NCBI GenBank assembly: GCA_013331805.1
Contig: DUFS01000073.1
Location: 3,315-18,781, forward strand
Source: Candidatus Micrarchaeota archaeon
Lineage (GTDB): Archaea > Micrarchaeota > Micrarchaeia > Anstonellales > Anstonellaceae
DNA length: 15,467 bases
Direction of reading: 5' to 3'
Shown here piece by piece: positions 3,692-13,791 of the stretch. The stretch's first letter is position 1. Each line of letters starts with the position of its first letter. The notes beneath the pieces were generated by a model that worked only from the letters and a program-made list of their open reading frames with translations, did no database searches and was not told the DNA's origin. Both the position numbers and the translations under genes were made by a program.

Positions 3692-4441
3692 ATGGAAAAC
3701 ACTCGCATCCGGTCTGGAATTCCCGGCTTGGACACCATGCTGGGCGGGGGCTTTTTGAAAACCAGCCTGACCGTGGTGGCGGGCGGAACGGGTTCAGGAA
3801 GGACAATCTTCGTTTCGCAGTTCCTTTTCAAGGGGGCTACAGCACACAGCGAGCCGGGCCTTTTCATATCATTTGACGACCAGAAGGACTCCCTTTACGC
3901 CAACTTGTCGCAATTCGGCTGGGACCTTGCTGACTTGGAGCGCAAGCAGAGAATCGTCTTCATCGAATACCCGCACAACGAGCTTGCCGCCTTTGCCGAG
4001 CAGGAGTCCGCGATGAAGGACCTGATATCCACCCTGGGCATAAAGCGCGTTGTGGTCGACTCCATCACCCCGTTTTCGCTAATGTTCACCTCGCAGGAGG
4101 AGCGCAGGCTCAATGTCATGAAGCTTGTTTCGGCCGTGAAAAGATGGAAGGTCACTTCACTGATTTCCGCTGAGACGATCCACGGCAACGAGGACTCCCA
4201 GTTCCCGCACACAGTATCAGGAGCGGAGTCATTCGCGGATGGATTCATCCACCTCTCGTTCCACAAGATCGAGGGCAAGCGCAGGAGGGCGGTTGAAATA
4301 GTGAAGATGCGCGGCTGCCGCCACGAGCACGAAATCAGGCGCGCGCAGATCAACAGCCAGGGCTTTGCAATCGAAATCCCCAAGAAGCCCGAAGAAGCGC
4401 AGGCTCACAAGAAGGTATTTTCAGATGGCAACCAAGCTTGA
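3692..4441 (+). CDS. KaiC/RAD55 (RecA-superfamily) single-domain ATPase with degenerate motifs
   Basis: RIRSGIPGLDTMLGGG, Walker A-like GGTGSGRT, Walker B RVVVDS, ADGFIHL and IVKMRG. AGGTG RBS. Confidence 0.93.
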   Translation: MENTRIRSGIPGLDTMLGGGFLKTSLTVVAGGTGSGRTIFVSQFLFKGATAHSEPGLFISFDDQKDSLYANLSQFGWDLADLERKQRIVFIEYPHNELAAFAEQESAMKDLISTLGIKRVVVDSITPFSLMFTSQEERRLNVMKLVSAVKRWKVTSLISAETIHGNEDSQFPHTVSGAESFADGFIHLSFHKIEGKRRRAVEIVKMRGCRHEHEIRRAQINSQGFAIEIPKKPEEAQAHKKVFSDGNQA

Positions 4442-10122: not shown

Positions 10123-11568
10123 GTGGCCAGCATGATCAGCCCGGACTTCGAAATCAGGCTCAGGCGCGAGGCAAAGACCTCTCTCCAGGTTTTCAAGGAC
10201 CAGTCCATACTCCGCAGGAAATTCGGGGATGACGGAGTCAGGCTCTATGACAGGATATTGGGGGACAAGACCGCGCACGAGCTTTTGGAAGAGCTTGGCA
10301 TGAACGAGGAAAAATTCGTTTCAATACTCGAGTTCATGAACAACAACGGCATGGTCTCGGTCGTGGAGGACGCCGAGCTTGAGTCCGCAAAATCCGCTGC
10401 AGGCAAGCAAGGCGAGGAAAAGGAGGAGTGGGCGCAAGAAAGCGAGCCGGCACTCGGCAAGGAGCCTGAAGAAAAAGAGGAAGGGCTAAGCGAAAAAGAA
10501 GAGGTTGAGGGCAAAGGCGGAAAAGAAGAAGGGGAAGGATCAAGCGAAGAAGAGGAGGGCAAAACAGAAGAAGACAAGGAAAAGCCTGGGCCCGAAAAAT
10601 CCCTGCCTGACGACCAGGGGCGCGATGAAGCGCTGCGCGGCATGCGGGGAAGAAAGCCCCGCCCCCCAAACAGGGCCGAAGTTCCTGAGGAGGAAGGCGA
10701 GCCTCTGCTTTCGCCTTTGGAAAAGGTGCTATTCGAAAAGTACGGGGACGTGGGCGTCCGGATTTACAATCTTATTGACGGGGAGAAAACAGCCGAGGAA
10801 ATACTGCGGCAGACAGGTGTCACCGAAGCCAGGCTTGTGGAAATACTCGAGTTCATGGACGAGCAGGGGATCATCAAGCTTGAAAAGCCGCCCGAGAAAG
10901 AGCCAGGGGAAAAACCCGAGGAAGAGGAGCGCTCAGCCGAGCCCGAGCAGGAGCCGCGCTTCAAGCCCATGATCGAGGAGGAGCCGGAAGAGATGCCCTT
11001 CACCCCTCCCAAGGCGCTTGAAAAGGAAAAGCCAAAGCCGAGAAAAGACGAGATAATGGAGGAGGAAGAGGAGCTGGAGCGCGAAATCGTGATGGTGGAC
11101 GTTCCTGAGCTTGCCAAGCTTTCGCTAATGCAAAAGGCGCTTCTCTTTGCCGAGCTTTCCACCAAGTTCGGAAAAAGCGCCAAGGACCTGATTGAGATGG
11201 TCGACAGCAAGCGGGACTTCATTGACCTTTCGCTTGGCACAGGGCTTTCATTTTTCGACGTTGACGCGATAATGGCGTATTTCGGGAAAAAGGGGCTGAT
11301 GAGCTTCAGGCAGCTGGGCCGCGAGGACATTAAGAAAAAGTACGGCGAGGACGGCTTCGCAATATACAAGCGCTTTGGCAGGGACGGACTCCTGCTTTAC
11401 GAAATGATCGGCAAGGAAGCCAGCCTCAAGGACATAATCGTCAAAAGCAAGCTGGAAGTTGACCGGGCGATAGAAATACTCATTTTCATCCACAGGGTCC
11501 TGGGGCTGGACGTCCCGATCGACAAGGGGCTGATTTATCGCCAGCTGGGAATGCGCAAACCGTATTAG
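10123..11568 (+). CDS. Hypothetical protein with four ~48-aa winged-helix-like repeats and acidic linkers
   Basis: Repeats of K[FY]G..G..[LI]Y..I.G.KT..E[LI]....G......[VI].IL.F....G begin at nt 10219, 10738, 11164 and 11371, separated by E/K/P-rich low-complexity linkers. Start is GTG 10123 or ATG 10132. Confidence 0.88.
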   Translation: MASMISPDFEIRLRREAKTSLQVFKDQSILRRKFGDDGVRLYDRILGDKTAHELLEELGMNEEKFVSILEFMNNNGMVSVVEDAELESAKSAAGKQGEEKEEWAQESEPALGKEPEEKEEGLSEKEEVEGKGGKEEGEGSSEEEEGKTEEDKEKPGPEKSLPDDQGRDEALRGMRGRKPRPPNRAEVPEEEGEPLLSPLEKVLFEKYGDVGVRIYNLIDGEKTAEEILRQTGVTEARLVEILEFMDEQGIIKLEKPPEKEPGEKPEEEERSAEPEQEPRFKPMIEEEPEEMPFTPPKALEKEKPKPRKDEIMEEEEELEREIVMVDVPELAKLSLMQKALLFAELSTKFGKSAKDLIEMVDSKRDFIDLSLGTGLSFFDVDAIMAYFGKKGLMSFRQLGREDIKKKYGEDGFAIYKRFGRDGLLLYEMIGKEASLKDIIVKSKLEVDRAIEILIFIHRVLGLDVPIDKGLIYRQLGMRKPY

Positions 11569-12117: not shown

Positions 12118-12498
12118 ATGGAAAATTATCACGGCGCATCAGGATCCACCATCAAGGGCAGCGGAGGCAAGCGTGGCAGGCACTCGGACAAGAAGCTCCG
12201 ATACATCGGCGGGATTTTCACCGCAACTAAAGTGGCAAAAGAGGATGTCCGGATCATGAAAAGCAAGCGTGGGAACGCCTTGAAGATAAAGCTCAAGGCC
12301 GCAAGGTTCGCAAACGTGCTCACCAAGGACGGCATGAAGCGCGTGGCAATAAGAAACGTGCTTGAAACCCCTGACAACCGCCACCACGCCCGCCAGAACA
12401 TCATCACAAAAGGCGCTATCATCGACACCGAGGCAGGCAAGGTCAAAGTCACCAACCGCGTAGGCCAGGACGGGGTTGTGAACGGAAGGCTTCTGTAA
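12118..12498 (+). CDS. rps8e: 30S ribosomal protein S8e (eS8), 126 aa
   Basis: RGNALKIKLK, NVLETPDNRHHARQNIITKGAIIDTEAGKVKVTNRVGQDGVVNG. GAGGAGGT RBS at 12104-12111 fixes the start at 12118 inside the longer ORF-track frame. Confidence 0.97.
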   Translation: MENYHGASGSTIKGSGGKRGRHSDKKLRYIGGIFTATKVAKEDVRIMKSKRGNALKIKLKAARFANVLTKDGMKRVAIRNVLETPDNRHHARQNIITKGAIIDTEAGKVKVTNRVGQDGVVNGRLL

Positions 12499-12628
12499 GG
12501 CAAGGGAAGTTCACAACAAGTGGCTCGGAAGCCACTGTGTCGTCAACGGACGCCTGCTGTAAGGCTTTGGAAGTTGACGATAAGTGGCGCAACAGCGCCA
12601 CTGTGTCGTGAACGGTCGTCTACTCTAG
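12473..12628 (+). repeat. Tandem 64/66-bp double-hairpin units carrying recoded copies of the rps8e 3' end
   Basis: Units at 12473-12536 and 12537-12602 plus a partial third at 12603-12628. Each begins with codons for VVNGRLL*, and the two full units end in AAGTGGC...GCCACT hairpins. Confidence 0.92.
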
Positions 12629-13791
12629 AGCGAAAGCAGAATCGAAGGAATGATTATCAATCCCATTACGTGAGTCCTTCTAATTCCAAGGAGCGGCGGC
12701 AGGATCCCAATCGCAGTCGCAGTGGCAAAAACCAGAAGACCCGCCCCTCCTGAAATTATCGCCACGGCGCAGGAAAGGTAGGCAAGCACCAGGAGGTTGA
12801 TCTTCTTGGTGTCAATCTGCTGAAGCCTGTCGGCATATTTTGATAGCCTCATCAAGAGGAATGCGGAAACGCCAATGGAGACAAGCAGCACCCCGACCAG
12901 GGCAGGCAGGTCTGAAGGCATAACCGGCTCTATCTCGTTCATGATGGCAAGCGCACCCTCCCGCGCCTTGCCAATGGAAAGCAGCGCGGCAAAGGCGAAA
13001 ACGCCATGCGAAGCTGCTATTGATGACACAAGCGCAAGGAATTTCTTCGCATCGTCTGTGACAAGGATGGCTGAGGCAAAAATGGCAATCTGCGCAGGAG
13101 CGGCAATGCCGGGAAGCAGGTCAGAAAGCATTCCGAACAGCACGCCTGCGGCCACATAGGGCAGGAAGTCAAGACGGGTGCTCTCCTTTTTCTGCCTTGG
13201 TATTTTTCGCTGCTGCGTGAAGGAAAGAAGAATGCCGCTTGCTGCAAAGAGCCCTGAAAAGGAAGGGAAGAGCGGGTCATTAACCGCGCCGCGCAGGGTG
13301 GCCAATCCAAGAGCGCCTGAAAGCAGGAAAACGAATGCAGCAAGGGCGATTTTTCCTGCTGCCCTTTCAGACAAAAGCAGATAAATCGAAGCGCCAACCA
13401 GGATTATCGCCATGTGCGGACTAATTGCGCCAAAGGCAATTGGCAGAAGCACAAGCGACACAGGCAGGAGCAGTGCCGATGCCCCTGCGGAGAGCATCAC
13501 AGAAAAGGCGCACACTGCCAGAGCTTGCCGCCCCCTTCCCTCAAGGGCCATCCTGTGTCCCGGGAGCACGGACGCAACAACAGTGTCATCTGGTATTGAA
13601 AGGAAAATAGAGGGGAAGAACTGGAATACCAGATGAGCGCCAAGGACCGCCACGATAATGTATGCGAACGCTTCCGGATCGATCGGAAGGGTGGACAATA
13701 CGGATGCTATTGTGTTGGAGTGTATCCCCGGCACCAAGCCTGAGAAAATCCCAAGAAGGATCCCGGCCAAGAGGGCGATTACCTGAATCAT
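12625..13791 (-). CDS. Tripartite tricarboxylate transporter TctA-family (DUF112, archaeal) membrane protein
   Basis: GIFSGLVPGIHSNT, FFPSIFLSIPD, VLPGHRMALEGRG, LFPSFSGLFA and IRRTHVMG motifs; hydrophobic throughout. Confidence 0.9.
   Translation of the reverse strand: MIQVIALLAGILLGIFSGLVPGIHSNTIASVLSTLPIDPEAFAYIIVAVLGAHLVFQFFPSIFLSIPDDTVVASVLPGHRMALEGRGRQALAVCAFSVMLSAGASALLLPVSLVLLPIAFGAISPHMAIILVGASIYLLLSERAAGKIALAAFVFLLSGALGLATLRGAVNDPLFPSFSGLFAASGILLSFTQQRKIPRQKKESTRLDFLPYVAAGVLFGMLSDLLPGIAAPAQIAIFASAILVTDDAKKFLALVSSIAASHGVFAFAALLSIGKAREGALAIMNEIEPVMPSDLPALVGVLLVSIGVSAFLLMRLSKYADRLQQIDTKKINLLVLAYLSCAVAIISGGAGLLVFATATAIGILPPLLGIRRTHVMGLIIIPSILLSL

Follow-up and report, generated by a model that had tools for sequence, protein, structure and literature searches.

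In a 15,467-nt stretch of DNA from Candidatus Micrarchaeota archaeon (assembly GCA_013331805.1, contig DUFS01000073.1, positions 3,315 to 18,781; below, the window), the ribosomal protein gene rps8e is followed by two additional copies of its own 3' end, with a pair of hairpins between each copy and the next (Table 1). The array is probably, if by no means certainly, two stacked cassettes, each made up of the last eight codons of the gene and a double hairpin of ~40 nt, from a family of gene-less elements found in one Micrarchaeota family. The source genome comprises 1.19 Mb in 83 contigs.

Copy 1, the end in use, reads GTT GTG AAC GGA AGG CTT CTG TAA. Pairwise comparison of the three copies gives 5, 6 and 7 differences over 24 nt, all of them synonymous; with random placement of the differences, the probability of this would be 0.001 for copy 2 and <5e-5 for copy 3. 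Both units follow one plan: an end copy, a spacer, a 9-nt arm complementary to the first nine bases (the VVN codons) of the preceding copy, one unpaired A, a hairpin of 7-8 bp with a 4-nt loop, and GT. In unit 1 the stop codon falls within the 25-nt loop of stem 1. In unit 2, positions 12540-47 pair with 12573-80 at 8/8 positions, with an additional G-T at 12539/12581. The last copy runs into the convergent TctA-family gene, the CTAG at 12625-12628 serving as a joint stop. Tandem Repeats Finder reports the array as a period of 64 in 2.1 copies (12481-12615). Its predicted RNA fold has -72.5 kcal/mol (z = -3.69), and none of 200 shuffled sequences was as stable. A search of Rfam 15, with E values up to 1 admitted, gave nothing for 12473-12628 or its surroundings, and no tRNA genes were found in the window. 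The coordinates and sequences given for the three VVNGRLL copies, the arms and the hairpins in an earlier reading of the window, made from the sequence only, were correct to the base.

Table 1. Components of the rps8e array and the gene convergent to it, in window positions.
Feature	Position	Strand	Remarks
rps8e coding sequence	12118..12498	+	126 aa + stop, ends VVNGRLL*; Pfam Ribosomal_S8e, E 1.5e-20
Copy 1, working last seven codons and TAA	12475..12498	+	First 9 nt form the 5' arm of unit 1 stem 1
Unit 1 stem 1, 3' arm (GTTCACAAC)	12509..12517	+	Pairs 9/9 with 12475-12483; minimum-free-energy fold agrees
Unit 1 hairpin 2	12519..12536	+	7-bp stem (12519-25/12530-36), 4-nt loop
Copy 2, untranslated spare end VVNGRLL*	12539..12562	+	5 synonymous differences from copy 1; 5' arm of unit 2 stem 1
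Unit 2 stem 1, 3' arm (GTTGACGAT)	12573..12581	+	Pairs with 12539-12547
Unit 2 hairpin 2	12583..12602	+	8-bp stem (12583-90/12595-12602), 4-nt loop
Copy 3, most distal spare end VVNGRLL*	12605..12628	+	No hairpins after it; TAG overlaps the tctA stop
Convergent TctA-family transporter gene	12625..13791	-	Pfam TctA, E 1e-39

The first possibility to be considered is that the haplotypes of co-occurring strains were collapsed into one contig during assembly. The source is a metagenome-assembled genome (MAG), and two public runs do also contain a relative, ~88% alike, with 64 rather than 134 letters from flank to flank, which makes it a one-unit allele. Assembled contigs of public runs were compared with the window. 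A contig of run X2 (4846 nt) spans positions 12250-12850 with two differing letters, one of run X4 (2592 nt), from a different study, spans the same interval with a single differing letter, and one of a third run extends over 12360-12850. The same array is present in metagenome contig L065 with one loop difference: position 12528, in the loop of unit 1 hairpin 2, is C in all four runs and in L065, giving cgca where the window has cgga. With contigs from different studies crossing the array at one or two differences, and the same layout in 19 relatives, an artefact is scarcely credible, and the modules are genuine, neither slippage noise nor misassembly, as had been proposed. One of the two differences in X2, a C>T at 12551, would replace Arg by Cys in copy 2, an early sign that spare ends may vary freely.

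The S8e protein was found in all 61 related genomes surveyed, and the same layout stands behind rps8e in 19 distinct relatives, from three genera of the one family. Seventeen of 45 distinct loci carry it, with units of 57-68 nt that stand singly or as a pair (the second copy has decayed in L007 and L010), and there are two further arrays in genus g2 (L108 and L111). A covariance model match at rps8e was obtained in 12 of 42 family genomes. Alleles with zero, one and two units, which the sequence-only reading had suggested looking for among the rps8e 3' ends of relatives, all exist; the window's own nearest relatives have no unit (L004) and one unit (L067). A gene-body tree that omits the last eight codons (quick search; 44 rows and 354 columns) requires at least 12 changes to account for the presence and absence of units. 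At rps8e, then, units come and go among close relatives. The distance from a stop codon to the next copy is 33-44 nt across the arrays and 40 nt in the window, where copy 2 is out of frame.

The array had also been described as polarised, and comparison of units bears this out: in three of three comparisons, a relative's lone unit comes closest to the distal one of the two-unit array. As whole-unit nearest neighbours, unit 2 of the window goes with unit 1 of L066 (0.79), unit 2 of L068 with unit 1 of L020 (0.90), and unit 2 of L027 with unit 1 of L028 (0.84). Such matches fit the addition of new units beside the gene body; older ends would thereby be pushed outward, and copy 3 would be the oldest in the window. 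The window's two units are 0.76 alike, no more than either is to units of other genomes (0.75-0.79), so neither is a recent tandem duplicate of the other. In 9 of 15 arrays the last copy is followed by a T-rich tract, which is the usual terminator signal in archaea, and in none of the 15 does one follow the first stop; among unit-less loci, TTTT lies at most 12 nt from the stop in 12 of 27. The last copy therefore stands where the ancestral end stood, and transcription of the gene should include the units, presumably as a 3' untranslated tail that precedes the T-rich terminator. Sequence does not single out copy 3 of the window as the ancestral end that had been proposed: it is copy 1 that is nearest to the closest unit-less relative (4, 5 and 7 differences), and only the position of copy 3 beside tctA argues for it as the oldest. 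The proposed insertion point within the Gly codon is likewise not resolvable inside the repeated 24 nt.

Where the replacement ends come from is clearest in the pair formed by L020 and its unit-less sister L024, which are 89% alike. The distal copy of L020 shares AAGCTTCTCT with the single end of L024 and differs from it at 5 of 24 positions; the proximal, working copy has 10 differences and an Arg for Lys. With a native-like distal end and a foreign-like proximal one, the unit must have brought a non-native end and displaced the native one. The claim that units supply recoded replacement ends thus holds for L020, the one genome pair in which the direction of gain (import or in-place copying) is resolved, and as an overall interpretation it has partial support. 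Part of the recoding may have a simpler origin. The arm of L067 unit 1 fits copy 1 of the window and not its own copy, and mosaic units of this sort point to recombination among units; homologous recombination exchanging whole units explains much of the apparent recoding without a dedicated insertion each time. Whole units, end and hairpins together, would then also pass between related lineages. A sliding-window search for breakpoints inside rps8e found no decisive one.

The copy that is translated is the one beside the gene body; the outer copies keep spellings that once worked, and then decay. Among 20 distal copies, the variation falls chiefly on third codon positions, a pattern shared with 15 working copies. 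Compared each with its own working copy, the distal copies have 73 synonymous and 42 non-synonymous codon differences, where ~96 non-synonymous ones would be expected at random and none of 3000 simulations gave as few as 42; the distal copies are mutually related, and the count overstates their independence. The non-synonymous changes are mainly K/R, L/I and V/I/M/A exchanges. Decay is visible in distal copies only: there is a 1-nt deletion in copy 3 of L012, copy 3 of L027 is unreadable, copy 2 reads AVNGKISL in L013 and has lost its stop in L070, and a distal copy of L111 reads VVNRRRI*. In the homologous unit of L066, L070 and L075, distal copies diverge more than working ones, and non-synonymously (five distal against three working differences between L066 and L070, and five against two between L066 and L075, counted from the sequences). 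Since distal copies diverge faster and decay, the spare ends are not under strong selection; they are young relics of formerly translated ends. Neighbouring copies would differ only synonymously because each was shaped by selection while it was the working end, either here or in a donor.

The codon-like variation kept in the spare copies, and the stop codon placed inside a stem-loop, might at first glance suggest a recoding device, in which the ribosome or a splicing enzyme skips from copy 1 to copy 2 or 3 and the spare ends are translated and selected. This is very improbable. Skipping would yield an identical protein, copy 2 lies out of frame 40 nt past the first stop with a spacing that varies among relatives, and orthologous distal copies drift faster than working ones, to the point of stop loss and frameshifts, with the Arg to Cys change in copy 2 of one strain. 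The predicted fold consists of plain hairpins, without a bulge-helix-bulge, and Rfam has no match here. Several specific devices were set aside along with it. A bulge-helix-bulge intron of the archaeal kind, with a pair of 3-nt bulges set 4 bp apart at the borders of the unit, does not match the predicted plain hairpins and, as the sequence is read, equivalent cut sites in near-identical copies cannot form the central 4-bp helix. Programmed bypass or readthrough was rejected for want of a fixed frame relation, the spacing varying over 33-44 nt from array to array. Comparisons with integron attC sites and with CRISPR were set aside on anatomy.

Both stems are kept by compensatory change. In a set of 20 aligned units (two stems, 17 pairs), 94% of the 336 cells over both stems pair, and both sides have changed in 10 of the 17 pairs. 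The covariation score is 0.434, compared with 0.204 in shuffles, and none of 500 shuffles reaches the observed value; as a control, sliding the partners by 1-3 columns lowers pairing to 20-53%. At the two wobble positions of the Val codons, copy and arm change together (C-G, G-C, U-A and A-U), so each arm tracks its upstream copy. There are 32 G-U cells and eight A-C cells, an excess that favours the sense strand, as RNA or single-stranded DNA, and that comes in part from one stem-base column, possibly not a true pair. As the units are presumably transcribed with the gene, the selected structure is probably an RNA fold stabilising or marking the 3' end, though it may equally well serve only the element.

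The double hairpin is also dispersed outside rps8e. A covariance model built from the unit (R1), run over the family at E up to 0.01, matched 44 places in 19 of 42 genomes: 18 of these are at rps8e and 26 are elsewhere, in 10 genomes. In an order-level sample at E up to 0.001, none of 109 genomes from 11 sister families had a match, compared with 17 of 41 in the family itself. Seventeen of the places away from rps8e were read by eye. They share a plan: a first hairpin with a recurring base (~RTYGNC...GNCRAT) and a variable upper part, one A, a second hairpin of the form RGTYGYGC-loop-GCRCRACY, and then GTGT or GTAT. Often the element lies between two copies of 18-29 nt of the end of its target gene, which stays whole.

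Some of these modules are at tRNA genes. They adjoin the 5' end of tRNA-Thr, as arrays of alternating hairpins, or come directly after tRNA-Pro, ahead of a T-run; double-hairpin arrays at tRNA-Pro or tRNA-Thr flanks were noted in L112, L114, L116, L124 (460-587 and ~1440-1580) and L126. In L124 a 29-nt 3' end of another tRNA is repeated, with the module inside the second copy, and in L126 (minus strand; ~330-500 of the reverse complement) the module is flanked on both sides by the first 20 nt of tRNA-Val. Other modules are within coding sequences. The homologous pre-pilin genes of L117, L118 and L127 (G021, G020; ~1500-1560) contain antisense, in-frame double hairpins that add one or two insertions of 17 residues and repeat GQGAT before EYLV. 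As a separate observation, ARAGORN predicts a 179-nt tRNA gene with a 107-nt intron at C37:6925-7103 (-) of the source genome; several perfect hairpins can be folded from this intron, and two lie side by side as in a module.

In the source genome itself, about seven extra loci were picked by eye, from a scan and by inspection. At C34:11016-11067 (-), outside the window, a NifU-like gene ends in DEKLV* with its stop in a stem loop, followed by an arm, the hairpin AGTGGAGC-agca-GCTCCACT, and a slightly decayed second end, EEKPV*, that abuts the start of the next gene, as the single end does in relatives. None of 19 relatives read at this gene end has this double hairpin. In L160 (G019), the NifU-like gene is followed by a different insert, of 27 nt, and then by its end once more, an independent event at a site also occupied in the source genome. 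A pilin-like gene at C83:36772-36898 (-) reads MGKSRGQAAIERRFCATAGSLKGQAAIDCASHNARTLRAQAAMEYLV and holds two antisense in-frame units, so that the preprotein has three copies of the cleavage-site motif (R/K)(G/A)QAA before EYLV. Four intergenic modules (C7:681-700, C21:47568-47587, C79:3529-3550 and C4:2575-2596), with a second hairpin of the AGTGGAAT type followed by ACAATGAAAAA, appear to be a repeat sub-family in this genome. The particular motif proposed as a search key, AAGTGGC-N-GCCACTGT, occurs only at the two rps8e units in this genome, though looser relatives of the module do occur. Genome-wide pattern scans for double hairpins were noisy: a loose one gave 954 matches against 563 in shuffled sequence, which is uninformative, and a tighter one 189 against 237.

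These dispersed copies bear directly on a purely local explanation, in which the units are a functional RNA structure of the 3' untranslated region (one that stabilises, aids termination or serves S8e autoregulation) that has grown by tandem duplication, is immobile, and leaves spare ends as by-products. In its favour are the covariation across the two stems, with their sense-strand G-U pairs, and the position of the units upstream of the T-rich tract, where co-transcription is expected; L111 even shows a recent tandem copy of a hairpin-plus-end unit. However, the 26 places away from rps8e include antisense sites inside coding regions and sites upstream of tRNA genes, and the window's units are as similar to those of other genomes as to each other. 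Tandem duplication of an end with its hairpins does not give a constant trailing end copy, nor does it account for the foreign-like proximal end in L020. Immobile local growth is therefore rated unlikely, while still the foremost of the rivals considered here.

If the units are mobile, something might be expected to move them, and the sequence-only reading had suggested cargo (an integrase, HUH or IS110 enzyme) between units. None was found in any array: all 19 have 33-44 nt between copies, with no integrase, transposase or other cargo, and the inserts are too short for an open reading frame, that of a homing endonuclease included. Y1_Tnp occurs in 12 of 42 family genomes, seven of them module-bearing where 5.4 would be expected by chance, so that the Y1 (IS200/IS605) transposase, a conceivable mobiliser, shows no association with module-bearing genomes. 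A 687-bp IS200-like element carrying only a Y1 transposase gene was seen at L130:1385-2069 and L131:1275-1961, 84% alike between the two genomes; its leader has a GC-rich, module-like hairpin, a weak match of ~20 bits. Nor was a carrier, another earlier suggestion, found in two hairpin-pattern scans of viral contigs. One scan gave a single chance match in a coding region and the other 18 matches to a lone hairpin in one phage family, all of them without the first hairpin or an rps8e end. In L183 (G036:C3), a module-bearing inverted repeat of 109 nt (95-203 and 3944-4052, 99% alike) surrounds a 3.74 kb segment, which it could allow to invert; the segment was considered as a transposase-bearing element and rejected, since it contains only ordinary genes (stomatin-like, PIN toxin-antitoxin and Pelota-like).

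Some integrative elements insert at the 3' ends of tRNA or protein genes and restore the gene, as e14 does at icd. In such elements, as in the array, the end is duplicated, the adjoining copy completes the gene, the old end is displaced, and tandem polarised arrays can form; the array differs in having no integrase, cargo or identical core, and in that its insert is a covarying double hairpin. The units might accordingly be attachment-site remnants of an integrase-type element, viral or plasmid, that targeted the rps8e 3' end, carried a replacement end, and lost its interior each time. The layout matches, with the working end next to the insert, a displaced gene end downstream of it, and polarised stacks, and tRNA genes are targeted as well. 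Yet none of the 19 arrays has more than 33-44 nt between copies, no further rps8e end copy lies within 1.5-4 kb downstream, the copies lack a long identical core, no carrier turned up in the viral scans, and both hairpins would have to outlast every independent deletion. This origin is improbable, more so than local growth.

Stacked cassettes of a gene-less element remain the preferred reading, and their anatomy constrains how they could have arisen. The order is target, inverted copy of the first 9-14 nt of the target, constant hairpin, and target again, which fits neither cut-and-paste or peel-and-paste transposition, integrase recombination, nor simple slippage. Template switching during repair or replication is only a guess at the insertion route. 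A broader and rather more doubtful proposal, put forward tentatively, is that DPANN archaea harbour an undescribed kind of minimal mobile DNA: a gene-less double hairpin of ~40 nt that would insert at gene and tRNA ends by copying 18-29 nt of the target together with an inverted copy of its first bases, essential genes surviving the event. Repeated hits would build polarised stacks recording past spellings, by neither classical transposition nor integrase recombination; the mechanism may be template switching or a structure-specific enzyme.

Several observations weigh against the element reading. All of the genomes are MAGs. The arrays are uniformly without cargo, and neither an enzyme nor an autonomous parent element was found in the searches described above. 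The gene-pairing arm is locus-specific, so that a simple fixed-end transposon does not fit, and the length of the duplication varies from 18 to 29 nt. Not every module shows a target duplication: the ACAATGAAAAA repeats, for example, belong to the element and are not target copies. The test for a native copy is mixed, with the proximal copy closer in L068, L073, L018 and the window, and the distal copy in L020, L066 and L070. Transfer of units between lineages draws on L068 and L020, where the gene bodies are 77% alike (third positions 57%) and the unit 90%; the units are short (57-68 nt) with a wide error on identity, and the contrast of 90% with 77% has P of about 0.02 by a rough binomial estimate. 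Over 58 nt the contrast is only suggestive, of transfer between lineages or of constraint.

Among known systems, the closest design is found in the mobile-open-reading-frame gene hybrids of fungal mitochondria (Allomyces macrogynus atp6; Glomus atp6, atp9, cox2 and nad3), in which an insert brings an in-frame, diverged C-terminus with mostly synonymous changes, for which its authors infer a horizontal origin (PMC3630166). There too, a replacement C-terminus is supplied and the native one is left unused just downstream; the insert is moved by a LAGLIDADG or GIY-YIG endonuclease gene of ~1 kb, whereas the array has gene-less hairpins of 33-44 nt, stacks, and is archaeal. The small palindromic repeats of bacteria, among them repetitive extragenic palindromes and bacterial interspersed mosaic elements (REP/BIME), MITEs (miniature transposable elements with inverted repeats) and the Rickettsia palindromic elements (PMC10969869), are likewise gene-less, multi-copy hairpins at gene ends, some in frame inside genes. 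The contrasts lie in the element's lack of fixed terminal inverted repeats and of a short, fixed target duplication, in its arm copied from the local target, and in that no transposase linked to it was found. Like a MITE, the element has many dispersed copies, namely the R1 matches in 10 genomes; unlike one, its stem 1 arms vary by locus, only a short base motif recurring, and its duplications are 18-29 nt long. In contrast to REP/BIME, which are extragenic palindromes with a conserved leading tetranucleotide, mobilised by a RAYT gene of the genome without duplicating the target, it has target-end duplications and some intragenic copies, and no association with a Y1 transposase.

Some bacterial restriction-modification genes have inserted with long target duplications by a mechanism given as unknown (PMC2853133). 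They resemble the element in having no mobility gene and in their long, variable direct target repeats, some overlapping a gene 3' end; they are kilobase units with near-identical repeats of >30 bp, where the array has inserts of ~40 nt and diverged copies. None of the compared systems combines a gene-less insert of ~40 nt, a long and diverged end duplication, a target-derived inverted arm and polarised stacking. Nearest in form to the insert itself are the double-hairpin elements of Allomyces mitochondria, reportedly described by Paquin et al. in 2000 as short, mobile and gene-less; these too have two hairpins and no gene, but they are organellar and are not known to duplicate gene ends. Searches of the open-access literature returned no description of such an element in Micrarchaeota or DPANN.

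At some distance from the array, window positions 10123-11568 (+) encode a 481-residue protein with a long Glu/Lys-rich middle and repeated winged-helix-like segments. Its only match, to TrmB, is weak (24 bits, under the cut-off).

If the element reading is true, an essential, single-copy ribosomal protein gene in a minimal genome tolerates repeated invasion, and does so because the invader brings a working copy of the end that it displaces. This replacement-end trick is so far known from kilobase, enzyme-carrying elements and not from 40-nt hairpins, and an enzyme or repair route able to make a long target duplication together with an inverted copy would be a new insertion mechanism. The elements alter gene products, giving longer pre-pilin signal peptides and structured tails on mRNAs and tRNA precursors, and they may matter both to how DPANN archaea express their genes and to how genes are called in DPANN MAGs. 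The stacked, retired ends would be dated fossils of synonymous history and of DNA exchange among these uncultivated lineages.

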